A stretch of DNA of 51,875 nt from an uncultured Halanaerobiales bacterium (GTDB taxonomy: Bacteria > Bacillota > Halanaerobiia > Halanaerobiales > M55B127): assembly GCA_964642575.1 (NCBI GenBank), contig CAZXRH010000001.1:1-51875 (forward strand), read 5' to 3'. A program made the translations under genes and the position numbers. Positions 395 through 44,537 of the stretch are shown in pieces. Numbering within the stretch: position 1 is the first letter of the stretch; the number at the start of each line of letters is the position of its first letter. The notes below the pieces were generated by a model, which saw only the letters and a list, made by a program, of their open reading frames with translations, made no database searches and was not told the DNA's origin.

Positions 395-603
395 ATAAAA
401 TTCTCCTTTCTTTATAAAAAATATTTCTCAAATCTCATCTATTCTCGACAAGCAACAACTATACTTATTATATTGTACACTATTGTGGATATCCCCTTCA
501 TAAATAGCTAATCTTTGGAAAATATATTGCTATGATTAGAATTATTGTATATAATAAATATTAATTATTACTAATAATTATTCTTAGAAGTAGGGTGATA
601 AAG

Positions 604-28801: not shown

Positions 28802-28868
28802 ATGTTAAATGATATAATAATGTTAATAAAACTTAACATATATAATTAAATTATGTTATATAATGTTA
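28802..28868. promoter_or_regulatory. array of five ATGTTA/TAACAT hexamers (candidate XRE operator sites)
   Basis: ATGTTA at 28802, 28820, 28853 and 28863, and an inverted copy TAACAT at 28834. Copies 2 and 3 form ATGTTAA-N6-TTAACAT. The array lies directly upstream of the HTH gene. Confidence 0.45.
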
Positions 28869-28895
28869 AAAATTATTTATATGGAGGTGTTTGTT

Positions 28896-30035
28896 TTGAA
28901 TATTGCCGAAATTATTGGTAGGAACTTAAAAGAAATACAAAAAGAATATGATTATAACCAAAAAGAGTTAGGTGAAATTATAGGTGTGACTCGCCAAACC
29001 ATGGCTAAATATATCAATGGTGAAAGAATATTAGATAGTGATAAACTCTATAAATTGGCTAAGCATTTTAATAAATCATTTGATTACTTTTTATCGTTAA
29101 ATGAAAGTAAGCAAGTTGCTTTTATGTTTAGAGCAGATGACCCAGCTAATAATTTTAATAAAGGTCTTAAAAAACAGATAAGTGAGCGTTTTAATTTATA
29201 TCATGATATTATTGAATTAAGTGAATTACCAATAAAAGACTATATACCTGAGGAATATAATTTAGATATTAAAGGGAAAAAATTGTCTTTTAAGGAAAAA
29301 CACGCAATTGCAAAAATAGCTGAAAAACAGAGAAGGTATATGGGAATAAATGATGCAATAAGTACAAATATTTTTAGCCTTTTTGAAGAAAACAATATAA
29401 ATGTAATAGCAGAAAAAATGGATAAATTAACATTGGATGCAGTTTCTGCCTATTCTCAAAATAAAGGTGCCTATGTTTTTATAAATGATAATGAAAATAT
29501 TCCAGAAGAGAGAAAAATTTTTTCATTAGTACATGAGCTGGGGCATCTTTTGTTACACAGAGATGAGTATGGTAAAGATTGGGATAACTTAAAATATACA
29601 AATTCAAGAATTAAAGATATTAGAGAAAAAGCTGCCGATTATTTTGCGATGAATTTTCTAATCCCACCAAAAGTATTAGATAATTTTGCCTATTATTTTG
29701 ATGGTTATGTGGATTTGGATTTAATTATTGATAAGAAAAAGGAATTTGGAGTAAGTGCAAAATGTTTAATAATGGCATTAAATGAAAATGGAATGATTGA
29801 AAGATCAACTTTGGGTTTTTTATATAAAAAATTACGGGAAAATTGTTTTGAAAAACAGGAACCGGAACCGATAGCATATTTACAAAAAAATGAAAAATTA
29901 TTTGCTTTAACCAAAAAGCTTTTAATACAAGGAAAGCTTACTACAAATAAGGCTGCAGAAATATTAGACATATCACTAAAAGAGATGAGGGAGCTCTTAA
30001 AAAGGTGGAAAAATTTTGAATATAAAAAGAATTAA
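28896..30035 (+). CDS. XRE-family HTH + ImmA/IrrE (M78-like) zinc-peptidase fusion with a C-terminal UPF0175-like antitoxin-type segment
   Basis: N-terminal HTH NQKELGEIIGVTRQTMAKYINGE. HEXXH motif in SLVHELGHLLLH. C-terminal segment GKLTTNKAAEILDISLKEMRELLKRW. TTG 28896 lies 8 nt after GGAGG. The ORF-track start is 28863. Confidence 0.75.
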   Translation: MNIAEIIGRNLKEIQKEYDYNQKELGEIIGVTRQTMAKYINGERILDSDKLYKLAKHFNKSFDYFLSLNESKQVAFMFRADDPANNFNKGLKKQISERFNLYHDIIELSELPIKDYIPEEYNLDIKGKKLSFKEKHAIAKIAEKQRRYMGINDAISTNIFSLFEENNINVIAEKMDKLTLDAVSAYSQNKGAYVFINDNENIPEERKIFSLVHELGHLLLHRDEYGKDWDNLKYTNSRIKDIREKAADYFAMNFLIPPKVLDNFAYYFDGYVDLDLIIDKKKEFGVSAKCLIMALNENGMIERSTLGFLYKKLRENCFEKQEPEPIAYLQKNEKLFALTKKLLIQGKLTTNKAAEILDISLKEMRELLKRWKNFEYKKN

Positions 30036-30561
30036 GAGCTTGAATAATAAAAAAGTAGCAATTGACAACAATGTTTTAATAGATTTACAAGAAATGTCTG
30101 CTGCCTTAAACACTAATTTTATGAAATTATTAAATCACTTATTTAATGATATATTCATTCCTATTCCAATTTTAGAAGATGAAATTATCAGCTCGCGTAA
30201 TGGATTAAATTATATGGAAGGAATTTTTTCTACTGAAGAGGGATACCGATTATATAATAAAATAAGCAACCAGAAACATGCAAAGATGTTATCAGATTAT
30301 GATATACATTTAGTAGTTTTAGCTGAAGAGAAAAATTTATTGGTAATTAGTAATGATAAACCAATTAGAAATATTTGTAATGATTATAATATTGAAATAA
30401 CGGGAACTATTGGTATTATAGTTTCGCTTTTTGAAAATGATATAATAACTAATAAACTACTAGAAACAGCTTTTCAATTTCTATTTTCTTCAAAGTCGAG
30501 TTGTTATCTTGATAATGATTTAAAAGATAAAATAAAACAAGAATATTCTCTTGATTTGTAA
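30016..30561 (+). CDS. PIN-domain protein (DUF3368-like), putative toxin
   Basis: Motifs VAIDNNVLIDL (first acidic residue), LLVISNDKPIRN, and the GTIGIIVSLF tail typical of DUF3368-type PINs. TTG follows AGGTGGA. It overlaps the upstream gene by 20 nt. Confidence 0.6.
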   Translation: MNIKRIKSLNNKKVAIDNNVLIDLQEMSAALNTNFMKLLNHLFNDIFIPIPILEDEIISSRNGLNYMEGIFSTEEGYRLYNKISNQKHAKMLSDYDIHLVVLAEEKNLLVISNDKPIRNICNDYNIEITGTIGIIVSLFENDIITNKLLETAFQFLFSSKSSCYLDNDLKDKIKQEYSLDL

Positions 30562-30572
30562 ATATATTATTG

Positions 30573-30614
30573 ATAGTCCTCTTTTAACTTTGAAAAGAGG
30601 ACTATAATTTTTTT
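30573..30614 (+). terminator. intrinsic terminator after the PIN gene
   Basis: ATAGTCCTCTTTT / AAAAGAGGACTAT 13-bp stem, then TTTTTTT. Confidence 0.8.
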
Positions 30615-30692
30615 ATGTAAAAAAGGAGCATTTACGTCTTTGTATAAATATTTTAATATAAAGTCTTAAATAAAACATAAAGGAAGATATCA

Positions 30693-31952
30693 ATGCTTTT
30701 AAAATCCAAAAAGGATTTCATTATTATTATCTTGTTAATAATCCTTTCATTAACTTCATATTCCTATTCAGTCAGCAGCCAAGTTAGCGAAAAAGAAAAA
30801 GTAGCGGTAATTAATCGCTGGCATTATGTACTTTTAGGTTCACAAGATATGAAATTATTTCCTTCAATCATTACTGCTAATATGATCGACCCAGCCACAA
30901 GAGAAATATTAGATTTAATTAGTGTTAATCAATTAAACAATGATCGGCAAATATATCAGTTTAGTAAATGGGTCCATGATCATTTTACCCATACGCAGGG
31001 TTTATCAATCTTTAAAAATGAAGTTGGTAAAGATCCCTGGGGAGCTGTTAGAGGGACTCCGCTCTATAAGAAATTGATTGCTAGTGAGATGAGAGCAATG
31101 CACATTTATTCTAATAAAAGTATGACAGGCAAATGCGGTTCCTTAGTAAATGAGATTGTCAGTATGTTTAGATTATTAGGAGTACATTCTAATAATACTG
31201 CAATATTTAGAATAAAAGGACACAGTTTTGGCTTAGTAAAGATAGAAGAGAAACTTTATTTAATAAATAATAATAGGATTTATTCGGTAAACCAAAAAAT
31301 CTTAGACTGGATTTTAGAAAAAAATTATTTGGGCTTACATAATGATCGAGTTTCTGTCAAAAAAGAATTTAAATTAAAGGAAGAAACGCTTTATGAGCCT
31401 GGGTTTTTAATTGAGAATATTTTTAAAGAAGAGAAGTGGAATTTATCTAATTATACTCTGATTAAAACAGACATCACCAATTATGATATTAGTAATCCGG
31501 AAGAGTTATTTCAAAATGAAATATTTCAAGAAAATAAATATTTAAAACTAGCCCAATACGCCTATCAGAGTTTATATATTCCAGACCCCGAAATCTATTT
31601 AAAGGCATCAACTAAAGGACCGCATTTAAATAAATTAGCTGAGGATTTAAATGATTTAGAAGATATTTTCAACTGGCTGCAGGAGAATATAGAAAATAAG
31701 TCGATTTTTAAATTTGATGATGATAGAATAATGACAGCTGAGCAGGTGATTGTTTTTAAAAAAGGTGGCATCAACGACCAGGGATTATTAATTGCTTCCC
31801 TATTAAAACAATGGGGCTATAACCCCAAACTATTAATTACATTTGGAAATAGTTTTATTGAGTATGAAAATGGAATAATAGATGTTAAAAACAAAAAATT
31901 AATTGAAGAAATTGGTAATGTGGAGATACAATATAAACTTCAAGCAGATTAG
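30693..31952 (+). CDS. secreted transglutaminase-like (papain-fold) protein, apparent tandem module
   Basis: Signal peptide. YQFSKWVHDHFTH followed by MTGKCGSLVNEIVSMFRLLGV..IKGHSFGLV resembles the transglutaminase-like Cys/His core. A C-terminal repeat, IFNWLQENI..GINDQGLLIASLLKQWGY, lacks the Cys. Confidence 0.5.
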   Translation: MLLKSKKDFIIIILLIILSLTSYSYSVSSQVSEKEKVAVINRWHYVLLGSQDMKLFPSIITANMIDPATREILDLISVNQLNNDRQIYQFSKWVHDHFTHTQGLSIFKNEVGKDPWGAVRGTPLYKKLIASEMRAMHIYSNKSMTGKCGSLVNEIVSMFRLLGVHSNNTAIFRIKGHSFGLVKIEEKLYLINNNRIYSVNQKILDWILEKNYLGLHNDRVSVKKEFKLKEETLYEPGFLIENIFKEEKWNLSNYTLIKTDITNYDISNPEELFQNEIFQENKYLKLAQYAYQSLYIPDPEIYLKASTKGPHLNKLAEDLNDLEDIFNWLQENIENKSIFKFDDDRIMTAEQVIVFKKGGINDQGLLIASLLKQWGYNPKLLITFGNSFIEYENGIIDVKNKKLIEEIGNVEIQYKLQAD

Positions 31953-31982: not shown

Positions 31983-33503
31983 ATGAGCTGTTTTAAAAAT
32001 AATAAATTGTTGTTGAATTTATCAATTATATTACTCATTTTATCTTTTAACAATGTTGAAGCTCTCACTATCAAAAATGAACTACCAGATGATATATTAA
32101 ATCAATTAACTCAAGAAAAAAGAAGCAAATTAAAGTCACTAACTGATCTAAAAGACAAATTTCAAAATAAATTATATAAGTTTAATAATTTAGATGAACA
32201 GCTTCCTAGAGATTCCATAAAGATCACGCGGGCTGAAAAAAAGCCCGGTCTGATATCTGTAAAAAAAGCAGTTGATGATGTAAACCATATGTTTAAACTG
32301 CTTAAATATGGTTATTCAGGTTATCAATACTTTGGTGGAGACGAAAAATTTATTCCTGTTAAAAAACAAATCATTAATACTTTAGATGACCGGGATATCT
32401 TTAATTATATTACGACAAAAAGATTTATAAAAATTTTAAAAAACGAACTATCTTTTATCCAAGACTTACACTTTTCAATAGATAATGAAAGTGTGGGTAA
32501 TAGATATCAATATTATATGTCATATGCTTATGAGTTTAGAAAAGATGAAAATGGCTTTTATACAAATTTAGATGAGGAAAAGGCTTATCTAAAGGAAATT
32601 AAAGGGTCAAAATTAGATAAATTAATTAAACCTTCCTTAAACGAAGAAGGTGAAATTATATATAGGTTAGGGACAGTCATTAATAACAAAGTTGGCAAAA
32701 CAGTGGAATTGAAGGCAAAATTACAAGTGGGAAATAAACTTATTGATAAAAGGATTATGCTGACTAGACCACAAAGAGAGTATTTCCAAAAGAAATCCCC
32801 TTATAATAAATATAAAAATGAGGGTTTTACCATTATTGAACACCGAACTGCCAGTGCTAATGAAGCTAATCGGGATCAATTAAAGCGATTAGCAGAAGAA
32901 GCTAAAGATTTAAAGGACAAAAAACATCTAATTATAGACTTACGAGGAAATTCAGGGGGAGCAGATACCTATGCTTCTGATTGGGTTGAAAATTTTACCG
33001 GAGTAGAACCTGGTGAAGGAATTATAGAAAGCAGCCTTGTGACTGATACAGCCAATAGATTATTACTAAACAGCTTTAATCAATATTATGGACTGTCATA
33101 TGATGAGCTTGAGCCTGAATATAAAAAGTTGTTTAAAAAAACCGAAAGTGGTTGGACTAATATCAAATATCATGAATATAAGGTAATAGAGAACAAAACA
33201 TTAATTATTGTCTTAATTGATAATGGAGTGGCATCAGCTGGTGAAAGTTTTGTAAATTATTTAAATCAAATGGAGAATGTGATATTAATCGGGACTAATA
33301 CAGCCGGACTTTTAGGGTTTGGAAACATGGGAATGTGCAATTTACCAAATTCAAATGTACAACTTTCTATAAGTAAAACTATTTCTCTACCACCTGATTT
33401 AACTTCAAGAGAAGGTAGAGGATATTATCCTGATTTTTGGATAGAACCCGATAAAGCATTAACAACTGTAGTGAGCTTTATCAATAATTATTTCAAAAAC
33501 TAA
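31983..33503 (+). CDS. secreted peptidase S41 family protein
   Basis: Signal peptide. The motif HLIIDLRGNSGG is typical of S41 (tail-specific protease-like) enzymes. GAGGTGA RBS. Confidence 0.7.
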   Translation: MSCFKNNKLLLNLSIILLILSFNNVEALTIKNELPDDILNQLTQEKRSKLKSLTDLKDKFQNKLYKFNNLDEQLPRDSIKITRAEKKPGLISVKKAVDDVNHMFKLLKYGYSGYQYFGGDEKFIPVKKQIINTLDDRDIFNYITTKRFIKILKNELSFIQDLHFSIDNESVGNRYQYYMSYAYEFRKDENGFYTNLDEEKAYLKEIKGSKLDKLIKPSLNEEGEIIYRLGTVINNKVGKTVELKAKLQVGNKLIDKRIMLTRPQREYFQKKSPYNKYKNEGFTIIEHRTASANEANRDQLKRLAEEAKDLKDKKHLIIDLRGNSGGADTYASDWVENFTGVEPGEGIIESSLVTDTANRLLLNSFNQYYGLSYDELEPEYKKLFKKTESGWTNIKYHEYKVIENKTLIIVLIDNGVASAGESFVNYLNQMENVILIGTNTAGLLGFGNMGMCNLPNSNVQLSISKTISLPPDLTSREGRGYYPDFWIEPDKALTTVVSFINNYFKN

Positions 33504-33596: not shown

Positions 33597-33625
33597 ACCC
33601 ACCTCAATTAAGAGGTGGGTTTTAT
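33597..33625. terminator. hairpin terminator, likely bidirectional (S41 gene on +, small ORF on -)
   Basis: ACCCACCTC-aattaa-GAGGTGGGT followed by TTTT on the + strand and flanked by an A/T run on the other side. Confidence 0.7.
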
Positions 33626-33651: not shown

Positions 33652-33798
33652 TTACCTGATAAAAAAGTCAAAGGGGTATGAATATTCTTCTTTTGTACAG
33701 AGACCTTTTTCTCGTTTATAATCTGGACACTTCTCTTTTTCTTTGCCATACGCTTCGGCTGTTGTCATAAAAGGACTGTAATATTCTCTATCTTTCAT
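33652..33798 (-). CDS. small ORF-1, 48 aa, Cys-containing basic protein of unknown function (paralog of 44063..44209)
   Basis: Below the ORF-track size cutoff. The minus strand reads AAGGAGGG-ttact-ATG. Translation: MKDREYYSPFMTTAEAYGKEKEKCPDYKREKGLCTKEEYSYPFDFFIR. A second copy of identical length lies 10 kb away. Confidence 0.6.
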   Translation of the reverse strand: MKDREYYSPFMTTAEAYGKEKEKCPDYKREKGLCTKEEYSYPFDFFIR

Positions 33799-33846
33799 AG
33801 TAACCCTCCTTATTCAGTACGGGTTTTCACTTAATTTCATTGTACA

Positions 33847-33875
33847 TTTATATAATAACTCATTTTAACAAACAA
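33847..33875 (-). promoter_or_regulatory. candidate sigma-A promoter for small ORF-1
   Basis: Minus strand reads TTGTTT-17 nt-TATAAA. The -35 element is weak. Confidence 0.3.
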
Positions 33876-34009
33876 TAATAGTAGGTATTTTACTAAATTC
33901 TTAAACTTCTATTTGGAGAGTTTAACTAATTGATAAATGACTAGATTATGTAGTTAATCTTTAAATAGAAAAAATATTAAGAAAATGAGCACAATTAACC
34001 ATTATTTTA

Positions 34010-34062
34010 TTGACAAATATTATTTGTTTTGATAATATTTAATTGTATAGACAACTAGTTGT
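34010..34062 (+). promoter_or_regulatory. sigma-A promoter plus operator for the GntR gene
   Basis: TTGACA (34010-15), 17 nt, TAATAT (34033-38) with an upstream TG (extended -10). Directly downstream lie GTATAGAC (34045-52, the GT-N-TA-N-AC core) and the perfect 12-bp palindrome ACAACTAGTTGT (34051-62). Confidence 0.65.
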
Positions 34063-34077
34063 GTAGGGGTGAAACAG

Positions 34078-34830
34078 ATGGAAAAAATTTTGAACAGTAT
34101 TAATATTAACAAGGAATCGGTTATTCCAATTTATCATCAGATTAAAGAACAATTACAAAATTTAATTGATAGGGGTATTATTGAAAATGGAGATCGCATT
34201 CCTTCCGAAAATGAACTAAGCTCACATTTTGACATTTCCAGAATGACAGCTCGTAATGCAGTGGAAGAACTGGTCAAACAAGGGATTGTTAAAAGAGAAA
34301 GAGGTAAAGGATCAATAGTTTTTCAACCAAAAATAGACCAATCTTTAATGAAAATTCAGAGTTTTACTAAAGCAATGAATGAAAAAGGATATACTATAAG
34401 AGCTGATTTATTAGACTTTGAAGTTGGAACAAGTAGTACAGAAATACAAAAACGGCTTAAATTAGAAGATAATGATAAGATAATAAGGTTATCCCGCATA
34501 CGTTGTATCGAAAATACTCCAGTTGGACTTCAATATTCTTATTTACCTTTTAAATTAACTGAACCACTTATCCAACACAAAAACAAATTAGAAAACACTT
34601 CTTTATATACCTTATTAAGAGAGTATTGTTCGATTAACCCTACTAAAACTCATGAGACCTTAGAAATTAAAAAGGCAACTGCTAAACAAAATAAACTTTT
34701 AAATATACCTCTCAATGAACCCTTGTTTTATGTCGAAGCGCTGGCAGAATGTGAAAAAGGACCAATGGAATATGTAGAATCATATTATCGATCAGATGTA
34801 TTTAAGTTCCATATTAAATCCGAATTATAA
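34078..34830 (+). CDS. GntR-family transcriptional regulator, HutC subfamily (wHTH + UTRA)
   Basis: Motifs PIYHQIKEQLQNLIDRGIIENGDRIPSENELSSHFDISRMTARNAVEELVKQGIVKRERGKGSIV, with a UTRA-sized C-terminal domain. ATG 34078 lies 6 nt after AGGGGTGA. The ORF-track start is 34069. Confidence 0.88.
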   Translation: MEKILNSININKESVIPIYHQIKEQLQNLIDRGIIENGDRIPSENELSSHFDISRMTARNAVEELVKQGIVKRERGKGSIVFQPKIDQSLMKIQSFTKAMNEKGYTIRADLLDFEVGTSSTEIQKRLKLEDNDKIIRLSRIRCIENTPVGLQYSYLPFKLTEPLIQHKNKLENTSLYTLLREYCSINPTKTHETLEIKKATAKQNKLLNIPLNEPLFYVEALAECEKGPMEYVESYYRSDVFKFHIKSEL

Positions 34831-34908
34831 TTTAAGGGGGTGGTGGCTCAAAAAGATAAGGCAGCTAGTATTTCTAGGTATTAATATAATAAGGAGGAGT
34901 AAATAATA

Positions 34909-36474
34909 ATGAAGAAGTATTCTTTATTAATTTTGGTTTTAGTTTTCACACTAATGCTTTCCACAGGTGTTGTAGCGCAAGAGTATGGCGGAGAATTTAC
35001 AGGCTTTTCATCAACTGATCCAAAGACCTTAGATCCGGCAGCAATTAGCTCCTGGGACCAGGCCGTAATGTGTATGAATGTTTTAGAAGGTTTGGTTAGA
35101 TTAACCCCTAAGGGTATGAGTATTGAACCCGGTATTGCTGAATCCTGGAGTGCCTCAGATGATGGTTTAGTATGGACATTTAACTTAAGAGAAGATGCCT
35201 ATTTCCATAATGGAGAAAATGTTACTGCCCAGGATGTAAAATATAGTTTTGAAAGAGTAATAAATCCTGAAACAAAGTCTCCAAGTGCCTGGATATTTAA
35301 TAAAGTCGTTGGCTATGATGCAATGAGAAATGGCGAAGCAGATAGTGTATCAGGTATCACAGTAGTTGATGATTATACTCTAGAAATAGAATTGGTAGAG
35401 CCTCTTACTCCATTTATTTCTATGTTGGCTGCACCAGGTGCCTCTGTAGTACCAGAATCTGCTGTAGATGAATATGGAGATCAATTTGGACAAAATGTTG
35501 TAAGTGCTGGTCCTTTTAAATTAGAAGAATGGGAGCAAAACTTACAGATTTCTATGACAGCCTTTGAAGATTACTGGGACGGCAGACCTTACTTAGATTC
35601 ATTAAACTTTAAATTTATACATGATGAAAATACAAGAGTAGTAGAACTTTTAACAGGTAACTTAGATTGGGCTTGGGTAACTCCTGCTCATCATAATGCT
35701 TTAACTACAAATGATAAATATAAAGACCACATTGGAAGAGTAAATACATTACACGCTGCTTACTTTATTATCAATATGGAAAGAGAACCGTTTGGTAGTA
35801 ATGAGAAACTACGCAAAGCAATGAGTTATGCCCTTGATACTCAAGCAGTTATTGATTCACTACAAGGCAGAGCAGATCCAGCTGTTGGTTTCTTCCCACC
35901 AGGATTTATGGGACAAAATGAGGATGCTCCAGCATATAAACATAATGTAGAAAGAGCGAAAGAATTAATGGCAGAGGCAGGCTATCCTGATGGTATGGAT
36001 GAAACATATACCTTAGTTAGTCTACCTTGGGAAAATCTAATTAACATATTATCTATTTACCAACAAAACCTCAAAGAAATTGGTATTAATATTGAATTGA
36101 ATCCAGTTCAATTTGGACAGTATACTTCAATTATTCAAGAAGGTGACTTTGACCTAGCATATGGATACAAAGTACCTGATTATGCAGATGCTGATGGATT
36201 TGCATATCCACTCCTATATTCTGAAGCAAGTGGAAATGCAGCAAATTATTCCAACCCTGAAGTGGATGAATTGATTGAAGAAGGTAGACAAGCAACCTCT
36301 GAAGAAGCAAGAACAGAAATTTATGAAGAAATCACATCCATTTTACAAGAAGAACTTCCATATATAACAACAACTCATAATATTTGGGTTGATGTAACAG
36401 ATCCAAGTGTTAGAAATTGGCAGCCAAGTGCTATGGACATTCATATGTTCCATAAAGTATGGATGGAACAGTAA
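34909..36474 (+). CDS. ABC transporter substrate-binding protein, family 5 (ligand unknown)
   Basis: Signal peptide MKKYSLLILVLVFTLMLSTGVVAQ. 521 aa, family-5 pattern. AAGGAGGAG RBS. Confidence 0.85.
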   Translation: MKKYSLLILVLVFTLMLSTGVVAQEYGGEFTGFSSTDPKTLDPAAISSWDQAVMCMNVLEGLVRLTPKGMSIEPGIAESWSASDDGLVWTFNLREDAYFHNGENVTAQDVKYSFERVINPETKSPSAWIFNKVVGYDAMRNGEADSVSGITVVDDYTLEIELVEPLTPFISMLAAPGASVVPESAVDEYGDQFGQNVVSAGPFKLEEWEQNLQISMTAFEDYWDGRPYLDSLNFKFIHDENTRVVELLTGNLDWAWVTPAHHNALTTNDKYKDHIGRVNTLHAAYFIINMEREPFGSNEKLRKAMSYALDTQAVIDSLQGRADPAVGFFPPGFMGQNEDAPAYKHNVERAKELMAEAGYPDGMDETYTLVSLPWENLINILSIYQQNLKEIGINIELNPVQFGQYTSIIQEGDFDLAYGYKVPDYADADGFAYPLLYSEASGNAANYSNPEVDELIEEGRQATSEEARTEIYEEITSILQEELPYITTTHNIWVDVTDPSVRNWQPSAMDIHMFHKVWMEQ

Positions 36475-36483
36475 GTTAAATTA

Positions 36484-36513
36484 ACCGGGTATGGGTCCCA
36501 TACCCGGTTTTTT
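36484..36513 (+). terminator. strong hairpin attenuator/terminator after the SBP gene
   Basis: ACCGGGTATGG-gtc-CCATACCCGGT followed by TTTTT. Confidence 0.7.
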
Positions 36514-36537
36514 AAAAAATGTTAAGGTAGCTAGGGG

Positions 36538-37476
36538 ATGATAAAGTTGTTTTCATACATAATTAAAAGACTGTTTTCACTAATTCCTATTATAATTGGA
36601 CTATCTATATTAATATTTGCCTTTTTATATCTAATTCCCGGTGATGTAGCCAGAATGATAGCGGGACCATCTGCTACTGATGAAGTGGTTAATAGTATTA
36701 GAATGGAAATGGGACTCAATCGGCCTTTATACATACAATATTTTGATTTTATTACTGATTTCCTTACCGGTGATTTTGGTAAATCTTATCAATCGGGTAA
36801 TTTGATTAAAAATGAGATACCACAGGTATTTATTAGAACCCTACAGCTTGCTATTACAGTTCAAATAATATCATTTTTTGTAGGGGGAGTTCTTGGAATA
36901 ATTTCAGCTATTTGGCGAAAAACTATTTGGGACCGAATAATTATGGCAATTTCAGTTTCGGGGTTATCCTTACCCTTATTTTGGTCTGCTTTAGTTATAC
37001 AATTGATCTTTAGTATTTATTTAGGTGTTTTACCTCCTTCCGGTTATGAAAGTGGTTTTGATCAGTTTATAATATTACCTGCGTTAACTTTAATGCTGCC
37101 TAACAGTGGTATGTTAGCGCGTGTTACTAGATCTGCAATTATAGATGTTATGAACTTTGATTATGTGAGAACTGCTAGGGCAAAAGGATTAAATAATTTT
37201 TGGGTAGTGACCAAACATATAGTTCGTAATGCTTTGATTCCGATGATAACTATGACCGGTACTAACTTGAGTCGCATGATGGGTGGAGTTATTATGATTG
37301 AAATCATATTTACCTGGCCGGGCATGGGTAAATATGTTTACGATGCTTTACTTTCAAAAGATTTACCTGCTTTGCAGACAGCCACAATGTTGATAGCTAT
37401 ATTGGTAATTCTGATAAATCTTTTAGTAGATTTATCCTATGCATTAATTGATCCCCGTATTAAATATGAAGAGTAG
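36538..37476 (+). CDS. ABC transporter permease (DppB/OppB-like)
   Basis: SYIIKRL N-terminus and DPRI C-terminus, multi-TM. The start may be TTG 36547, which is better spaced from GGGGA. Confidence 0.85.
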   Translation: MIKLFSYIIKRLFSLIPIIIGLSILIFAFLYLIPGDVARMIAGPSATDEVVNSIRMEMGLNRPLYIQYFDFITDFLTGDFGKSYQSGNLIKNEIPQVFIRTLQLAITVQIISFFVGGVLGIISAIWRKTIWDRIIMAISVSGLSLPLFWSALVIQLIFSIYLGVLPPSGYESGFDQFIILPALTLMLPNSGMLARVTRSAIIDVMNFDYVRTARAKGLNNFWVVTKHIVRNALIPMITMTGTNLSRMMGGVIMIEIIFTWPGMGKYVYDALLSKDLPALQTATMLIAILVILINLLVDLSYALIDPRIKYEE

Positions 37477-37490
37477 AGGAGGAAATCATC

Positions 37491-38345
37491 TTGAATGCCT
37501 TTTTAAATTTTTTCAAAAAAGAACCACTTGCCTTTTTGGCCTTAATAGTGGTTGTATTATATATACTTATTGCAATTTTTGCTCCTTTTATTGCTACCCA
37601 TGATCCCTTTGAAGTTAAAACCAGTATGGAAGTTGAGGGTGAAAAAGTTTATGCTCCCTATGCTCCCGGTGCCCGACATTGGTTTGGAACAGACCAGTTA
37701 GGGAGAGACCTTTTCAGTCGAATTGTTTATGGGATCCGGATTTCTATTTTTGTAGGTATTGTAGCCCGGGGTTTAAGTATGGTTGTGGGTGTACTGATTG
37801 GCTTATTTGCAGGTTTTTATGGAGGGGCACTTGATAATATTGTCATGCGGATAACAGATGTTTTTATTTCAATTCCAGCCATCTTATTGGCCATGATTGT
37901 TACTTTAATCTTAAGTCCCAGCTTAACTTCTGTTATAATAGCAATTGTAGTAGTAGGTTGGCCGAAAGTGGCTAGATTGGTCCGTGGTCAGGTCATGAGC
38001 ATTACTACCAATGATTATATAGAAGCCACAGAGGCTTTAGGGGCGAACAATTTAAGAATTATTTTTAAACATGTTTTGCCAAACTGTATTGGAATTATCA
38101 TAGTATCTTTCTCAATGGGGATTCCGGGTGCAGTTATGTATGAAGCCGGACTTTCTTTCTTTGGTCTTGGTATTCAACCTCCTAATCCTAGTTTAGGTTC
38201 AATTATCTCAAATGGGCGAGGTTACTTAATGTTTGCCCCCTGGTATAGTATTATACCTGGAATTGCTTTAGCCTTATTTGTACTTTCAGTCAATGTCTTA
38301 GGAGATACTTTAATAGATTATTATGATCCAACCTATAATAGATAA
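37491..38345 (+). CDS. ABC transporter permease (DppC/OppC-like)
   Basis: Motifs WFGTDQLGRDLFSRIVYGIR and EAGLSFFGLGIQPP. TTG follows GGAGGA. Confidence 0.85.
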   Translation: MNAFLNFFKKEPLAFLALIVVVLYILIAIFAPFIATHDPFEVKTSMEVEGEKVYAPYAPGARHWFGTDQLGRDLFSRIVYGIRISIFVGIVARGLSMVVGVLIGLFAGFYGGALDNIVMRITDVFISIPAILLAMIVTLILSPSLTSVIIAIVVVGWPKVARLVRGQVMSITTNDYIEATEALGANNLRIIFKHVLPNCIGIIIVSFSMGIPGAVMYEAGLSFFGLGIQPPNPSLGSIISNGRGYLMFAPWYSIIPGIALALFVLSVNVLGDTLIDYYDPTYNR

Positions 38346-38363
38346 AATATTGAGGTGATTTTT

Positions 38364-39173
38364 ATGAAATTAGGAGTTTCTACAAGTGTATATTTACATA
38401 ACAACTTATTTAAAGCAGTAGAAAAGATTAATGATTTGAATTTTAAATATATTGAATTATGGGGTGAACCACCTCATTTATGGTTTGATAAACCCGATTT
38501 TCAATATTTGAAGAAATTAAAAAAATACTTAAATGAAAATGATTTAATACCTACTTATCATGGGCCTGCCCATGATATTGATATTACAAGTGTCAATCCG
38601 GGTATTAGACAAGAGTCTTTAAAGCAAAGTAAAGATGCAATACAAATGGCTCAATTTTTAGGTTCAGAGATTATTGTAATTCATATGGGGAGTTATTACC
38701 CTGGTGATAAAAAAGGAACAGAAAATGGTAAAGATAGATTATATAAATCTTTGGAATATCTTCTTCCATATGCTGAAGAAAATAAAGTAACTATTGCTCT
38801 GGAGAATTATCCAGTGGGAGAAAATGCTATCTTTAAAACGCCAGAAGATGTATTGAATATTCTTAGAGATTTTGATTCTGAATATTTAAAGTTAACTTTA
38901 GATATAGGTCATGCAAATTTAACAAATATTTCTCCGATAGAGTATATTAAAATTTTAAAAGATGAAATTGTCCATCTTCATCTTAATGATAATTTTGGGA
39001 AAGAAGATAAGCATTTGGTACCTGGTGAAGGTGAAATAAATTATCCGGCCATATTTAATCAGTTAAAAAAGATTAATTTTGACCAAGTAGGCATCTTTGA
39101 AATTTGGGCACCTGATGAGACTGATCAGGCCCTTATAAACAGTAAAAACTATATTAAATCACTTTTAAGCTAG
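38364..39173 (+). CDS. sugar-phosphate isomerase/epimerase-like TIM-barrel protein (xylose isomerase-like / AP endonuclease 2 fold)
   Basis: MKLGVSTSVY start, then IALENYP, TLDIGHANL and HLHLNDN, the typical metal-ligand pattern. ATG 38364 lies 8 nt after GAGG. Confidence 0.75.
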   Translation: MKLGVSTSVYLHNNLFKAVEKINDLNFKYIELWGEPPHLWFDKPDFQYLKKLKKYLNENDLIPTYHGPAHDIDITSVNPGIRQESLKQSKDAIQMAQFLGSEIIVIHMGSYYPGDKKGTENGKDRLYKSLEYLLPYAEENKVTIALENYPVGENAIFKTPEDVLNILRDFDSEYLKLTLDIGHANLTNISPIEYIKILKDEIVHLHLNDNFGKEDKHLVPGEGEINYPAIFNQLKKINFDQVGIFEIWAPDETDQALINSKNYIKSLLS

Positions 39174-39190
39174 GAGAGGTTGATTAAATA

Positions 39191-39784
39191 ATGGAAAGGA
39201 TAATAGGGATAGATATTGATGGGGTCATAACAGATGAAACAGGCAGATACCAGCGAAATATCTGGCATCATTATTTATGTGAATATTTAGGAAAAGAAGT
39301 TAGTAAACAAGAAGATATCTATAATATATACCATGCTTATGATATTGATAAAAGTGTTATTGATAAATTTTTAAAAAATAATTTAACAAATATATATGAA
39401 GATTTAATTCCTTTAGAGGGTGTACAGGAAGTTTTAAGAGAACTAAAAAAGAAAAGTTTTAAGATTATTTTGATTACAGCTCGTGAAGAAAAATATAGGG
39501 AAGTTACTAAAAGATGGCTTTCTTATTACAATATAAGCTATGATAAATTAGTTCATCGCGAAGATAAAGTACCTTATGCTAAAAAAGAAGGAATAAAATT
39601 ATTTATAGAAGACGATCAAAGCAATGCAGAGGAATTTAAGAGAAATGGTATAGATGTAATTTTATTTGATAAAAAACATAATAGGGATACTGATATAATA
39701 AATGATGCATTTCGTGTAGAAAATTGGAAACAGGCAAAAGATATTATTTATAAACATTTTGACCTTAAAAAGAAATGTGGGTGA
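39191..39784 (+). CDS. HAD-superfamily hydrolase, 5'(3')-deoxyribonucleotidase-like
   Basis: Motifs IGIDIDGVITD (DxDG), ILITAR and LFIEDD. 197 aa. Confidence 0.65.
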   Translation: MERIIGIDIDGVITDETGRYQRNIWHHYLCEYLGKEVSKQEDIYNIYHAYDIDKSVIDKFLKNNLTNIYEDLIPLEGVQEVLRELKKKSFKIILITAREEKYREVTKRWLSYYNISYDKLVHREDKVPYAKKEGIKLFIEDDQSNAEEFKRNGIDVILFDKKHNRDTDIINDAFRVENWKQAKDIIYKHFDLKKKCG

Positions 39785-39788
39785 TTAT

Positions 39789-41159
39789 ATGGATAAGTAT
39801 AAAGGAGATTTTGATGAGCTAATAGATAAATGGGAACTAAAAGAAGAAAATTTGTGGATAGATTATCAGGTTTTAGGCCCGATGTTTGCTTCTTTAAGAA
39901 TGTTTCTAAGTATGGAAAATGTACTGCCAGTTATCGTAGGTTCTAAAGGCTGTTTAAATCACCTGCGCTTTACAATCATAGCCTGGGGGGAAGAAGACTT
40001 TCATCTGGGTAAAAAGCCGGTTACACTGCTTGAATATGACCAACAGGATATAGTTACAGGAGACTACAGTATAACTGATACCTGGTATCAGAATATGAAA
40101 AAGTTAGCAAAACAAGAAAATACAGAAATGATTGTTCTTTTACCCACAGATCCTATAAATATTTCTGGGGTAAATTTAGACCCGATTGCTGATGATATCG
40201 AACAAGAAATTGGTATTAACACAACCTATATACCCACCTCAGCTATATCAGGCGCTAATCAGTTTGAAGGTTATCAGGCGGCCCTTGAAGCATTATACAA
40301 ACCATTTTTAGAACAAGAATATGAGAAAAAAGATACAGTAAATTTAGTGGGTTGGATGTGGCCGTCACGTAAAAGAGAACACGAGATCGGAGCCTGTATT
40401 GAGATGCTTAAACAGATTGATATTGAAGTACAATCTGTTATCACTGGTGGTAGTTCAGTTAAAGATATTGAAGATAGTATGCAAGCAAAAGCTAATGCAA
40501 TGGTTTGTTCTGCAGTGGCTGGAGACTTGTTTTATAAATTAGAAGATAAAGGAATAAAACTGGCTGCAAAAAGATCACCATATGGTAATGAAGGAACTTT
40601 TGAATGGCTAAGCCATATTGCAAAAGCTTTAGGTAAAGATAAAACAGAAAAAATACGTAGATTGGAGAATCTATATAAGGATGATTTTGAAGAAATCAAA
40701 GAAACCTTAAAAGGGAAAAAAGTATTTGTAAGTGGTGGTCCAGGCCGGTTAATTGGACTACTTCATACTCTAAGTGATTATGAAGTTGACATACAATCAG
40801 CTGCCTTATTTTGGCCCCACCCTTGGTCACAGGAAGATTTACAGCATATGAAAGACAAGCACGGTATAAACATTAAAAATATAATAGTCTCACCTGGTTT
40901 AGATGATTTAGAAGAAGTTGCACAAAATCATGAGATTGATTTATGGTTAGGTGGATACCAGGAACAGCATGTGGCCAAAAAGTATGAGATACCTTTTGTA
41001 CCAATTACAGTCTATACTTCACCTCATGTTGGTTTTGAGGGAGTAGTTAATCTAGGTAATAAATTGAAACTGGCTTTAGAAGGTTATGACTTTACCGAAA
41101 ATATATTGAAAGCAAAGGAGATACAGCCATGTATTTATCGTCTAAACGAGAAAGAATAG
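39789..41159 (+). CDS. nitrogenase component-1-type oxidoreductase, alpha (NifD/NifE)-like subunit
   Basis: By-eye family pattern: PVIVGSKGCLNH (compare HGPxGC), KANAMVCSAVAGDLF and SPHVGFEGVVNLGNKL. ATG 39789 follows GGGTGA. ORF-track ATG 39759 would overlap the HAD gene. Confidence 0.7.
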   Translation: MDKYKGDFDELIDKWELKEENLWIDYQVLGPMFASLRMFLSMENVLPVIVGSKGCLNHLRFTIIAWGEEDFHLGKKPVTLLEYDQQDIVTGDYSITDTWYQNMKKLAKQENTEMIVLLPTDPINISGVNLDPIADDIEQEIGINTTYIPTSAISGANQFEGYQAALEALYKPFLEQEYEKKDTVNLVGWMWPSRKREHEIGACIEMLKQIDIEVQSVITGGSSVKDIEDSMQAKANAMVCSAVAGDLFYKLEDKGIKLAAKRSPYGNEGTFEWLSHIAKALGKDKTEKIRRLENLYKDDFEEIKETLKGKKVFVSGGPGRLIGLLHTLSDYEVDIQSAALFWPHPWSQEDLQHMKDKHGINIKNIIVSPGLDDLEEVAQNHEIDLWLGGYQEQHVAKKYEIPFVPITVYTSPHVGFEGVVNLGNKLKLALEGYDFTENILKAKEIQPCIYRLNEKE

Positions 41160-42313
41160 AACCATTAAAAGGTTGTTCAATGGTGGGCATTATTGAAGGA
41201 TTAATGGGCATAGAAGACGCAAGACCTGTAGTTCATGGTCCAATGAGCTGTTCTTCTGGTCACCGAATGGTGTATTTATTTGCAGATAAAGAGCCCATTT
41301 TACCAACAACAGCTTTAACAGAAGAGGAACTGGTTTTGGGTTCACAAGAAAAACTTAAAGCTGCTTTAAAAAAAGCCTATGATCTTTATGAACCAAAATA
41401 TATTAGTATAATCATAACCTGTGCGATTAGTTTATCAGGGGAAGAATATAATAATATAATAAAAGAATTTGAAAGAGAACATGATTGTAAAGTATCTGTT
41501 TTAGATGGCAGTGGATTATACGGTGAAGAAGTTGATGGTTTTAACCAATTATACGAAGATTTTTGGGAAAGATTTAGTATTTCAAATAATCATTCACAGC
41601 TTGTTAGTTTGGATGGGATGGCCCTAAGTGATGTAAATGCAAAAGGAAATTATAATGTAATCATAAATTTATTACAAAAGTATTTCAAAGTAGAAATAGG
41701 TCCTTCAATATTTTTAGATTTTAATATAAAAGAAGACCTTGACATTTATAAAAAGTCTGAAAAAATAAAAATCGGACACCTTTGGAATAATTATGAAATT
41801 GAGGATAATAGACCAGCCCCTTATGGAATAGAGGGTACCTATCAATGGTTAAAATGGTTTAAAAATAGATTTGATAAAAGAACAAGTGAAAACCTAAAAG
41901 ATGATTATGAAAATTATAAGGAACAGCTTAATAAGCTATTAGATGAAAATGATTTAAAAGATTTAAAAATAGTAATCGAAGGCGATTCCTGGACTGCGCT
42001 GGGATTGGCTAACTTCTTAAAATATGAGATAGGCTGTAAGGTAATGTTGAGCACTGATAATTATGGATTTAAATATAATAAAGAAAATATACAACTAGAA
42101 GATATTTATGATGATATGGGTGGTTATGAACTCTTTACTAAAGCAAAAGAATTCAAACCAGATATTGTATTTGGTTCATCATATATTCGATGTAAAAAAC
42201 AGTGGGATATCATTCCTTTTACTCAACCTATCTACCATTTATATGATAATGATATTGATTTAATGGGATATGAAGGAGCTTTTAATTTAGTAGACATTTT
42301 GTCTGAGATCTAA
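41129..42313 (+). CDS. nitrogenase component-1-type oxidoreductase, beta (NifK/NifN)-like subunit
   Basis: EPLKGCSMVG, VVHGPMSCSSGH and SIIITCAISLSGEE reproduce the three-Cys motif order of NifK/NifN. AAGGAG lies 8 nt upstream. It overlaps the D-like gene by 31 nt. Confidence 0.7.
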   Translation: MYLSSKRERIEPLKGCSMVGIIEGLMGIEDARPVVHGPMSCSSGHRMVYLFADKEPILPTTALTEEELVLGSQEKLKAALKKAYDLYEPKYISIIITCAISLSGEEYNNIIKEFEREHDCKVSVLDGSGLYGEEVDGFNQLYEDFWERFSISNNHSQLVSLDGMALSDVNAKGNYNVIINLLQKYFKVEIGPSIFLDFNIKEDLDIYKKSEKIKIGHLWNNYEIEDNRPAPYGIEGTYQWLKWFKNRFDKRTSENLKDDYENYKEQLNKLLDENDLKDLKIVIEGDSWTALGLANFLKYEIGCKVMLSTDNYGFKYNKENIQLEDIYDDMGGYELFTKAKEFKPDIVFGSSYIRCKKQWDIIPFTQPIYHLYDNDIDLMGYEGAFNLVDILSEI

Positions 42314-42356
42314 ATAATATATTAACAGAACTTAAAAGCACTATTGGAGGAATACT

Positions 42357-43169
42357 ATGAAAAAGATAGCGATGTATGGAAAAGGTGGAATAGGTAAATC
42401 AACTATAGCTGTAAATCTTGCCTTAACCTTTGCCAAAAAAGATTATAATATTGGTTTAATTGGTTGTGATCCCAAAGGAGATACCTGTAGGTTATTAGCT
42501 CCCCAAAGATTACCAACTATTTTAGATAATTATAGTGAAATCAAAAAGGATATTAATAATATCAAAGATCTAATATATGTTTATGAAGAAAGTATCTCAT
42601 GTATAGAAGTGGGTGGACCTAAACCCGGGGTAGGTTGTGCTGGTAAAGGGATTGTCTTAGGTCTTGATCTATTAGAAGAGTATGATTTCTATCAGGATAA
42701 AGATATTATCATTTACGATGTTTTAGGTGATGTAGTTTGTGGAGGTTTTGCCTCTCCAGTTTCAAAAGGTTATGCCGAAGAAGTGTATATAGTTACTTCC
42801 GGAGAACAGGCTTCCCTCTTTGCAGCAAATAATATTATCAAAGGCATGAGTCAAATTGGTGGTAATATTCAAGGATTGATCTATAACAGTAAAAACATTG
42901 ATAAAGAATTAGAGATAGTCAACGAATTTTCTAAAAGAATTCAAATACCTATTATTGGAAAAATAAAACATTCAAAAAGAATTCCTTTATTGGAGTTACA
43001 AAAAAAAGCAGTTGTGGATGTATATTCAGATGGGAAAGAAGCCAAGCAGTTTGCAGAACTAGCAGACCATATTATAAACAAAGATATTGATGTACAGACT
43101 GATAATATTGAAGATGAAGAAGTTCATGAAATAATAAAACAAATAAAGGGTGATAAATATGTCTATTAA
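42357..43169 (+). CDS. NifH/BchL/CfbC-family ATP-dependent reductase (Fe-protein-like)
   Basis: P-loop [10 protein letters not shown] and switch [25 protein letters not shown] and [14 protein letters not shown] carry the two [4Fe-4S] ligand Cys motifs. GGAGG RBS. Confidence 0.88.
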
Positions 43170-43989
43170 TCATCCCTGTTATACAGGTGGCTGTTATCAG
43201 AATATTGTTCGCATCCATTTACCGGTTGCAGATGTCTGTAACTTAGGTTGTGGTTTTTGTGAAAGATCAATTGAAAACAAAGATGGTATCAAATCAAGTA
43301 ACAATGCAGTCTCCCCCCAGACTGCATTATCTTGGCTAAAAAAACTCATTGAGGAAGATAAAGAGGATATAAAGGTTGTGGGTATTGCTGGACCTGGTGA
43401 ACCATTATTTAGTGAAAACACTTTTGAAACTTTGAAATTAGTTAAAGAAGCATATCCAGAAATTTCAACCTGTCTCTGTACCAATGGTGTAAACCTTGAT
43501 AAGGCTGTAGATAGAATTACTGGCCTGTTAGATTATCTGACAGTAACCATTAATGCCTATACTCCAGAAACAGCCAAAAAAATATATAAGTTTGTTGTTT
43601 TCAATGGTGAATATGAATATGGGCTAGACTCTTTTCAAAAGATGCTTGACAAGAAATGGGAAGGAGTCAAAAAGGCTCTAGCTTCTAATAGCTTTAATGC
43701 TCTAAAAATAAACAGCATTTTTATTCCTGATGTTAATGATGAAGAAATTGTGGATATAGCAAAAAAAGCAGGTGAGCTCGGTATTGATGAATTAAACATC
43801 AAAACTTTGATTCCTAAAGCATACTTTAAAGACCATAAAAAATTCAAAAAAGAGAATCTTAAAAAAGTAAGGGAAGAAGCAGGTAAATATATTACGGTAT
43901 TTAAAGAATGCAAAAACTGCAGCTATGATGCAGTAGGAGTACCTGGTAAAGATAGAAGATTAAATTTAATGTTTAAAGATGAAATATAA
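43159..43989 (+). CDS. NifB-like radical-SAM protein (core domain only)
   Basis: [25 protein letters not shown] (CX3CX2C), [14 protein letters not shown] and [12 protein letters not shown] follow the NifB core pattern. No NifX-like extension. ATG 43159 follows AAGGGTGA and overlaps the nifH-like stop. The ORF-track start is GTG 43150. Confidence 0.75.
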
Positions 43990-44006
43990 GATATTGTTAA
44001 ATATAT

Positions 44007-44035
44007 TTAGCCCCTTTGTAAAAAAAAGGGGCTAA
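44007..44035. terminator. hairpin between the convergent NifB-like gene and small ORF-2 (probable bidirectional terminator)
   Basis: TTAGCCCCTTT / AAAGGGGCTAA stem with an A-rich loop. The U-tail is poor on both strands. Confidence 0.5.
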
Positions 44036-44062
44036 AAATGTATTAATATCCAATTTTAATTA

Positions 44063-44209
44063 TTAATCTCTCATAAAAAAGTTCAATTTATAAAAAATGT
44101 TATTCGATTTACAATTTTGTCTTGATTGTTTGTTTTGATTTCTTTTTCCACAGCGGTTATAAGAATCAGCATTTGTCATATAAGGATAGATTGTATTTCT
44201 TTTTTTCAT
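44063..44209 (-). CDS. small ORF-2, 48 aa, Cys-containing basic protein of unknown function (paralog of 33652..33798)
   Basis: Below the ORF-track cutoff. The minus strand reads AGGAGTGG-tcatt-ATG. Translation: MKKRNTIYPYMTNADSYNRCGKRNQNKQSRQNCKSNNIFYKLNFFMRD. It shares MK.R....P[FY]MT.A[ED].Y and a [DN]FF[IM]R tail with small ORF-1. Confidence 0.6.
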   Translation of the reverse strand: MKKRNTIYPYMTNADSYNRCGKRNQNKQSRQNCKSNNIFYKLNFFMRD

Positions 44210-44259
44210 AATGACCACTCCTGTAATTAAGTAGTTTATATCTATTGTGTTATATTTAC

Positions 44260-44296
44260 ATTATACTATACTTGATAAAATTACTCAAGTATAGTA
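44260..44296 (-). promoter_or_regulatory. sigma-A promoter of small ORF-2 embedded in a perfect 12-bp inverted repeat (operator)
   Basis: Minus strand reads TTGAGT (44288-44283), 17 nt, TATAAT (44265-44260). The inverted repeat TACTATACTTGA (44264-75) / TCAAGTATAGTA (44285-96) covers both the -35 and -10 elements. Confidence 0.6.
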
Positions 44297-44508
44297 ACTG
44301 TTTTACTATTATAATATTAATGACTAAAAGTAGTTGAATATATTTTTTAAAAATATCTAAAATTTATTTATTTATCACATATTTATTACATAATTGGTTG
44401 TTAAAATGTAAATGTAACATGAAAGAAGTCTCAAAAAAAGTTAATTATTCTCCCCGAAGAAAATGCCAATACCAATACAAATGAAGAACCATCTATTTTC
44501 TACTCCTT

Positions 44509-44537
44509 AGCCCCGAGCGATCGGGGCTTTATGTTTC
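44509..44537 (+). terminator. orphan GC-rich hairpin with a GNRA tetraloop (terminator-like)
   Basis: AGCCCCGA-GCGA-TCGGGGCT followed by TTATGTTTC. There is no annotated + strand gene immediately upstream. Confidence 0.45.

Follow-up and report, generated by a model that had tools for sequence, protein, structure and literature searches.

Two very small open reading frames (ORFs) on either side of a nitrogenase-like (Nfl) operon in an uncultured Halanaerobiales bacterium raise the question of whether they belong to that operon or merely lie beside it. The window analyzed here is the whole stretch of 51,875 nucleotides (nt) that makes up positions 1 to 51,875 of contig CAZXRH010000001.1 (GenBank assembly GCA_964642575.1), with a G+C content of 33%; within it, ORF-1 (33652-33798) and ORF-2 (44063-44209) lie on the minus strand at the two ends of the Nfl operon (34069-43989). 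A preliminary description had noticed the pair and suggested that they frame the operon functionally or delimit a block of acquired DNA. Our analysis points to a different reading, to which we assign a probability of roughly 70%: ORF-1 and ORF-2 are genuine, independently transcribed genes that stem from an old duplication within a tiny protein family, and their position beside the Nfl operon appears to be accidental.

Each ORF spans 147 nt (48 codons plus stop) and carries, 5 nt from its ATG and on the same minus strand, a strong Shine-Dalgarno (SD) sequence of the AGGAG type, AAGGAGGG at 33804-33811 for ORF-1 and AGGAGTGG at 44215-44222 for ORF-2, all in agreement with the first description. 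The translations given there are also correct, with eight of the 17 N-terminal residues identical between the two products, two Cys in each of them, and the C-terminal tails DFFIR and NFFMR. The ORF-1 product has 48 amino acids (aa), an isoelectric point (pI) of 6.2 and a grand average of hydropathy (GRAVY) of -1.27, and the ORF-2 product has 48 aa, a pI of 10.2 and a net charge of +8.5. The ORFs had been called unannotated, which holds only in part: both exact protein sequences are present in the protein collection, and relatives have already been deposited as hypothetical proteins (HKL12865.1 and MCF8002404.1). Since every function-assigned ORF of at least 90 aa between 595 and 45917 is encoded on the plus strand, ORF-1 and ORF-2 constitute minus-strand units within a 45-kb plus-strand run.

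The homology proposed for the two products was borne out by alignment shuffles, tblastn, subfamily hidden Markov models (HMMs) and hhalign. The BLOSUM62 alignment of ORF-1 with ORF-2 scored 62, whereas shuffled sequences scored 21.5±4.3 in local and 11.9±5.2 in global alignment, and a score of at least 62 was reached in 1 of 5000 local shuffles and in 0 of 5000 global ones. In a tblastn search of the six-frame translated window, the two ORFs were mutual best non-self matches (E 3e-4). Among 1293 six-frame segments, an HMM built only from relatives of ORF-2 (type B) recovered ORF-1 at E 8e-8, and one built only from relatives of ORF-1 (type A) recovered ORF-2 at E 3e-5, while hhalign aligned the two subfamilies with a probability of 95.8% (E 8e-9). 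Default BLASTP of ORF-1 versus ORF-2 produced no alignment, likely because of composition correction on low-complexity queries of 48 residues. The ungapped nucleotide identity is just 65/147 (44%), without excess at any codon position, and the pair is therefore not a DNA repeat. The concern that the resemblance might be repeat similarity free of codon constraint thus finds no support, and neither does the suggestion that the ORFs are borders of an acquired block, as the only DNA shared between them is an 18-nt promoter block. With about 30% protein identity and separate orthologs for each, the paralogs are ancient and do not represent a recent duplication at the borders.

To what extent the two ORFs are under selection as proteins was assessed by Nei-Gojobori counts on orthologous pairs, in which about 18% of sites are synonymous, with binomial P values. 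ORF-1 and its ortholog at locus L001 differ by 9 synonymous and 2 non-synonymous changes, giving a ratio of non-synonymous to synonymous rates (dN/dS) of 0.04 (P 7e-6); the corresponding values are 10 and 3 for ORF-2 versus L029 (dN/dS 0.04, P 1.8e-6), 8 and 7 for L015 versus L030 (dN/dS 0.12, P 8e-4), and 8 and 5 for L015 versus L035 (dN/dS 0.08, P 2e-4). The check for purifying selection that had been proposed at the outset consequently reveals strong codon-level constraint in three independent ortholog pairs (dN/dS 0.04-0.12). Start, stop, frame and the length of 47-48 codons are retained in all variants, and the small-ORF region of L031 is orthologous to that of ORF-2 at the DNA level (67% over 325 nt). 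Because synonymous changes are in excess and the frame is kept among orthologs, the substitution pattern identifies ORF-1 and ORF-2 as protein-coding genes. Short, AT-rich, intergenic ORFs at synteny breakpoints, as these are, could in principle be chance frames, or decayed repeat remnants at the borders of inserted blocks, with no coding function. We give almost no credence to this explanation, which is refuted by the substitution pattern of the three pairs; it also sits badly with the low nucleotide identity of the two ORFs and with the preservation of frame, length, SD, promoter block and terminator across several species.

Homologs with a conserved reading frame do exist outside the window, although they are few. 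A word-indexed search of 5.8 billion proteins and a full HMMER search of 1.84 billion cluster representatives yielded five clusters at 90% identity in total: P0001 (96% identical to ORF-1), P0002 (94% identical to ORF-2), P0005 (ORF-1-like, 57% identity, 47 aa), and P0003 and P0004 (both ORF-2-like, 47 aa). Further protein variants were found among the cluster members, bringing the family to 12 distinct variants, all of which keep length and frame. The only two members that bear names are the hypothetical proteins of Halanaerobiales metagenome-assembled genomes (MAGs) mentioned above, and the family of 47-48 aa is lineage-restricted, all sightings to date coming from MAGs of Halanaerobiales and from hypersaline metagenomes. 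Judged by their sequences, its members belong to an old split between a near-neutral type A (ORF-1, P0001, P0005 and P0035; pI 6-9, tail FFIR) and a basic type B (ORF-2, P0002-4 and P0056-58; pI 9-10, tail FF[MIL]xD). Searches of viral contigs, phages and plasmids with tblastn found no member; a metagenome scan with a 7-sequence alignment returned nothing beyond one contig type already known; and no further paralogs occur in the window or in the loci (28 at the last scan). Scans of genome contigs with the family alignment, and then with the NflD-like protein, found nothing, the species itself and close relatives being unreachable there by the exact-word patterns used.

All products are very hydrophilic (GRAVY -0.95 to -1.50), rich in Lys, and contain 15-21% aromatic residues. 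They share a conserved N-terminal segment, MK.R..YP[YF]M..[DE][AS]Y, and a conserved aromatic C-terminal tail, [YF]...FF. One Cys is invariant (C34 in ORF-1), and the second is shifted by four residues between the subfamilies. From the sequence properties, no hydrophobic stretch or membrane segment was found, and no signal peptide was seen, no dedicated signal-peptide predictor having been run. A type I toxin or small membrane protein was considered and ruled out by the same GRAVY values and the lack of a hydrophobic stretch. AlphaFold2, run on the family alignment, returned a low-confidence model with only a helical middle, with a predicted local distance difference test score (pLDDT) of 55 and a predicted template modeling score (pTM) of 0.24. 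The small proteins matched zero families in Pfam and NCBIfam even at E<=10, and none in PADLOC or PHROGs at E<=0.01; the best match among PDB sequences was an occludin coiled coil at E 0.12, a chance-level hit. The family is thus undescribed, with no curated model and only 'hypothetical protein' entries, and joins the many small-protein families restricted to one lineage rather than founding a new kind of system.

Independent transcription of the two genes is suggested by their flanking sequences. Aligning the upstream regions of the approximately 30%-identical paralogs exposed an invariant 18-nt block, TWGTWAAAYANNTACTAT, that is, T[A/T]GT[A/T]AAA[T/C]A-NN-TACTAT, located at 33878-33895 (minus strand) for ORF-1 as TAGTAAAATACCTACTAT, with the dyad TAGTA-N7-TACTA and a probable role as a transcription-factor site, and at 44291-44308 (minus strand) for ORF-2 as TAGTAAAACAGTTACTAT. 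An exact match to the block precedes both small ORFs of the window and every small ORF of 16 small-ORF loci, and with zero mismatches the pattern occurs nowhere else in the window or the 28 loci. Between the end of the block and the ATG lie 78-86 nt. All distinct upstream regions matching the pattern have a TATNNT hexamer (TATTAT, TATAGT, TATAAT, TATACT or TACTAT) exactly 20 nt after the block, at +21 to +26; the block of L034 is a one-base variant and was left out of this count. The TAGTA-N7-TACTA dyad is perfect in the blocks of ORF-1, ORF-2 and P0003, and between the close orthologs L015 and L030 the block and the sequence downstream of it are conserved, whereas the sequence immediately upstream is not. 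For ORF-1, the hexamer TATTAT at 33852-33857 (minus strand), 20 nt downstream of the block, would be the -10 element. The putative -10 region of ORF-2 (44260-44270, minus strand) holds TATAGT (44265-44270) at the family-conserved position, overlapping the TATAAT (44260-44265) of a sigma-70-like match, TTGAGT-17-TATAAT.

A perfect 11-bp inverted repeat, TACTATACTTG-N11-CAAGTATAGTA (44264-44296), also extends from the end of the block to the putative -10 of ORF-2; it is present in the ORF-2/P0002 lineage, with one arm changed from CAAG to CGAG in P0002, and could be an additional operator. An AGGAG-type SD precedes, and a G+C-rich hairpin terminator follows, every member of the family. The terminator of ORF-1 (33597-33620) has a 9-bp stem with six GC pairs and T-runs on both strands; because it scores as a terminator in both directions, it can stop both ORF-1 and the convergent S41 peptidase gene. 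The terminator after ORF-2 (44006-44036, minus strand) has a 12-bp stem, lies about 17 nt past the stop (43989) of the convergent radical S-adenosylmethionine (SAM) gene, and has homologous hairpins after the orthologs. Block, hexamer, SD and intrinsic terminator together indicate that ORF-1 and ORF-2 probably each form their own transcription unit. Searches of both intergenic regions against Rfam, at the gathering threshold and at a permissive E-value, gave only chance sub-threshold matches. An anti-SD hairpin (AAACCC with GGGTT just 3' of the SD) was examined as a candidate regulatory element and was not established, its RNAalifold energy being -3.7 and then -1.0 kcal/mol with modest covariation.

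The geometry of these elements suggests how the promoter might work. The TATNNT hexamer would serve as the -10 element, transcription would start about 45-46 nt before the ATG, near 33845 for ORF-1 and near 44258 for ORF-2, and the center of the dyad would fall near -42 with no conserved -35, an arrangement that would fit a promoter dependent on, or occluded by, a dimeric transcription factor. As both genes share the block, they would be co-regulated by one regulator. Class II activator-dependent promoters of the CRP/FNR/NtcA type have their site centered near -41.5, and the block resembles them in its imperfect dyad TAGTA-N7-TACTA (which contains GTA-N7-TAC), in the fixed distance of that dyad from the putative -10 hexamer, in the lack of a conserved -35 and in the predicted dyad center near -42, counted from the putative start. 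Its half-sites and 7-nt spacer, however, match neither CRP (TGTGA-N6-TCACA), FNR (TTGAT-N4-ATCAA), NtcA (GTA-N8-TAC) nor Rex, and the site could equally be a repressor operator. Compared by eye with the sites of Rex, TnrA, Fur/PerR/Zur, CRP/FNR, NtcA, B. subtilis GntR, PadR and the sporulation sigma factors, the block gave no convincing match.

Sporulation offers a further explanation for such a promoter, since part of the order Halanaerobiales forms endospores: the products might be sporulation-specific small proteins, of the minor small acid-soluble spore protein (SASP) or the Lys/Tyr-rich coat type, and the block part of a sporulation-sigma promoter. The minor SASP genes of Bacillus (sspH-sspP, tlp) encode very hydrophilic proteins of about 35-70 aa from mono- or bicistronic units that have a strong SD and end in a terminator; the several paralogs of a genome use a common promoter type, and the proteins are lineage-restricted and of obscure individual function. 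The family described here resembles them in its small hydrophilic products, its SD and terminator, its paralogs with a common promoter type and its restricted distribution; its genes are monocistronic, its 47-48-aa products are rich in K, E and Y, and its promoter geometry is fixed. Nevertheless, it has no sequence or HMM similarity to minor SASPs, no SASP, Tlp or Cot model of Pfam or NCBIfam matched, and block and hexamer are, by eye, unlike the consensus sequences of sigma-F, G, E and K; the block departs from that of sigma-G, the C of CATA/CATnnTA is absent, and the hexamer stands 20 nt from TACTAT. We therefore regard a sporulation role as unlikely. Another parallel is provided by the Fur-regulated basic proteins FbpA/B/C, small basic proteins of Firmicutes, which type B recalls in being about 48 aa, strongly basic (pI about 10) and stand-alone with a dedicated putative operator. 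In this case, too, there is no NCBIfam or Pfam similarity, type A is near neutral, and the block is not a Fur box.

We turn now to the Nfl operon itself. It encodes a GntR/UTRA regulator, a family-5 solute-binding protein, two permeases, a sugar-epimerase-like TIM barrel, an NT5C-like nucleotidase, two NifD/K-like proteins, a NifH-like protein and a NifB-like radical-SAM protein; no ATPase genes are present in it despite the binding protein and the two permeases. All of its proteins score below the NCBIfam equivalog cut-offs, the best matches being CfbC for the NifH-like protein (291 bits; cut-off 402) and NifB for the radical-SAM protein (192 bits; cut-off 344), and the system is accordingly uncharacterized. 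The NifH-like protein of the window clusters with proteins of Halanaerobiales MAGs, and a literature search on nitrogenase-like genes in Halanaerobiales found nothing relevant. A sister Halanaerobiales lineage carries the same operon, with 70% identity for GntR, 78% for the solute-binding protein, 84% for the radical-SAM protein and 92% for the NifH-like protein. There, 60 nt separate the gntR promoter from the M20 peptidase gene before it, and 288 nt separate the radical-SAM gene from the S41 peptidase gene that comes next. Both flanks of the sister operon are devoid of family members, of relics and of the promoter block: the family HMM had no match in any of 12 sister Nfl loci (L017-L028), and the 288-nt gap between the radical-SAM and S41 genes holds neither an ORF relic nor a block relic. 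The gntR gene has its own promoter, TTGACA-17-TGATAATAT (34010-34054 region), followed by the near-palindrome TTGTATAGACAA (34043-34054), and as both are conserved in L001 and in sister locus L017, the near-palindrome is likely a GntR auto-operator. This promoter/operator is self-contained, lies more than 110 nt from the ORF-1 block, and is kept in the sister, which has no small ORF there. The unrelated GntR gene beside P0005 has a perfect palindrome of its own, TTGTTATAACAA.

This comparison bears directly on the proposal that the small proteins are accessory factors of the Nfl system (chaperones, metal- or cluster-handling proteins, or regulators of the operon) and that they flank the operon for that reason. 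They do flank it in the window and its close relatives, and each has two Cys and lies beside genes for Fe-S enzymes. In size and in adjoining nitrogenase-superfamily genes in the window, they also recall proteins of the NifT, NifW, NifZ and NafY type, from which they differ in matching none of these families, in being encoded on the opposite strand under a putative promoter of their own, and in being absent from the sister operon. HKL12865.1 (P0005) and the sister NifH-like protein HKL13429.1 belong to the same accession series and are both named 'MAG TPA ... Halanaerobiales bacterium', so that they probably come from the same MAG, in which case the type-A gene of the sister resides at an unrelated locus; moreover, type-B orthologs occur in non-Nfl contexts, and both small ORFs have their own putative promoter and terminator. 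The functional framing was therefore not borne out, and the co-occurrence with Nfl loci, which the preliminary description had proposed to examine, is not conserved, with the sister loci empty and the orthologs in other contexts; we judge an accessory role to be very improbable. Even less can be said for precursors of ribosomally synthesized and post-translationally modified peptides (RiPPs) modified by the adjoining radical-SAM enzyme, for which we see hardly any chance. ORF-2 and P0002 do adjoin a radical-SAM gene and contain Cys, but the enzyme is NifB-like (192 bits, as above, below the cut-off), has no peptide-maturase signature and is part of the Nfl operon; its gene is convergent with the small ORF and persists in the sister without one. 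The remaining family members have no radical-SAM neighbor, and the conservation of both termini around a variable middle is unlike a leader-plus-core layout.

The genomic contexts of the family bear on how the bracket arose. The arrangement of the window is repeated only in its own close relatives. The type-A genes of the P0005 genome and of a further relative, L034, are divergent from another GntR/UTRA regulator, of only 31% identity, which heads a sugar-type ATP-binding cassette (ABC) operon with SIS, HAD and SBP_bac_1 genes. Type-B orthologs lie between an IlvD-like dehydratase and an S41 peptidase in three lineages, and P0003 (one lineage, L013) adjoins a tRNA-Arg gene. At that locus, tRNA-Arg(ACG) occupies 9591-9667 between a GntR/FCD gene and P0003, and a gene call of 45 aa at this spot is spurious, being the tRNA in translation. 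An S41 peptidase gene adjoins a family member at 31983-33503 in the window, at 4005-5525 in L015, at 8173-9693 in L030 and at 3037-4557 in L035; the two genes are convergent in the window, where the family member is of type A, and divergent in the other loci, where it is of type B. By DNA comparison with its relatives, the window lacks the S41, 231-aa and mgtC genes between ORF-2 and the DUF427 gene. What it does keep there is a non-coding stretch (44366-44530) that is 72-73% identical to the sequence just 3' of mgtC in L025 and L031, ends in a plus-strand terminator-like hairpin (44509-44528), and has no match in Rfam; with mgtC and S41 missing beside ORF-2, it would represent the scar of a deletion or rearrangement. 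On the other side, inserted material separates the M20 gene of the window from gntR, namely the S41 gene with ORF-1 and a cassette of three genes. In a region rearranged to this degree, the bracket would be a lineage-specific outcome of shuffling at operon junctions, and it appears to be local rearrangement, not functional coupling, that left the ORFs flanking the Nfl operon.

The inserted cassette (28863-31952) is missing at the M20-S41 junction of L001, a close relative, and is likewise absent from the sister species. It encodes a 390-aa HTH_3 and ImmA/IrrE (Peptidase_M78) protein that matches PADLOC RmrA at 1.8e-35, a 181-aa PDC-S70-like protein (5.5e-8) and a 419-aa protein without a family, and is probably an inserted defense or toxin-antitoxin-like islet. 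Farther from the small ORFs, the gene of the related contig L038 at the position matching the first ORF of the window (595-2634) encodes a PAS + sigma-54 activator, and this position lies upstream of a cluster of racemase, nitroreductase, M19 dipeptidase and ABC genes. Overall, the window is dominated by peptidase and peptide-uptake operons.

Several observations weigh against a purely accidental position or limit what can be drawn from the data. GntR-family genes recur beside the small ORFs (window, L007/L034 and, at a distance, L013), and so do S41 genes (window/L001 and L015/L030/L035); pure accident fails to account for this recurrence. The family was found mostly through called proteins, and the DNA-level scans used narrow patterns, so that its distribution, and any co-occurrence with Nfl, is under-sampled. 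The pair L007 versus L034 has a dN/dS of 0.47, based on few changes, and is uninformative. The putative -10 element, transcription start and transcription-factor site are deduced from conservation and geometry, it is also conceivable that the block is part of an alternative-sigma promoter, and a structural model at pLDDT 55 supports neither a particular fold nor the idea of a Cys pair.

The recurrence raises the prospect that the small proteins act with these neighbors, either as modulators of GntR or as substrates or adaptors of the S41 C-terminal-processing peptidase recognized through the conserved FF-x-x tail. Its appeal lies in the type-A genes divergent from non-orthologous GntR/UTRA genes in two lineages, in the S41 genes next to type A (window and L001) and next to type B (L015, L030 and L035), and in the conserved C-terminus. 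The orientation toward S41 varies, however, from convergent in the window to divergent elsewhere, ORF-2 and P0002 have neither a GntR nor an S41 neighbor, the S41 protein of L030 begins, by eye, with a signal-peptide-like hydrophobic segment of a kind not seen in the small proteins, and the GntR operator differs from the block of the small ORFs. Because these genes share one rearrangement-prone syntenic region, the GntR and S41 adjacencies are also not independent events, and we hold a role with these neighbors to be improbable. The accidental position of two genuine genes remains our preferred reading.

As for the proteins themselves, the product would bind a partner, or a metal via the Cys pair, rather than act as an enzyme; speculatively, these may be small soluble proteins that bind a partner or a metal and whose production on demand is governed by a regulator-controlled promoter. 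A more ambitious proposal, which we consider improbable, is that the family and its private operator form an unrecognized Halanaerobiales regulon acting on GntR repressors or the S41 peptidase, the bracket being real but evolutionarily labile. If so, a dimeric regulator would switch on a pair of neutral and basic 47-48-aa proteins that would modulate the GntR-type repressors gating peptide or sugar uptake operons, including the Nfl operon, or that would alternatively be adaptors or substrates of the S41 peptidase.

The main concrete results of this study are the proof of coding, the division of the family into two subfamilies, a promoter block of 18 nt that is private to it, and the separation of the small ORFs from the Nfl operon. 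A tempting but unsupported link to this operon is thereby removed, and the two ORFs need not be counted among its parts. The immediate impact is modest, and would be greater should the block turn out to define a regulon or the GntR and S41 neighborhoods prove functional. The sharply defined cis-element (TWGTWAAAYANNTACTAT, 20 nt, putative -10) can be used to find the regulator and any further members of a regulon. For the biology of the Halanaerobiales, a poorly studied order of halophilic anaerobes, the analysis adds a small-protein family supported by selection, of a kind whose genes are usually missed or recorded as 'hypothetical'.

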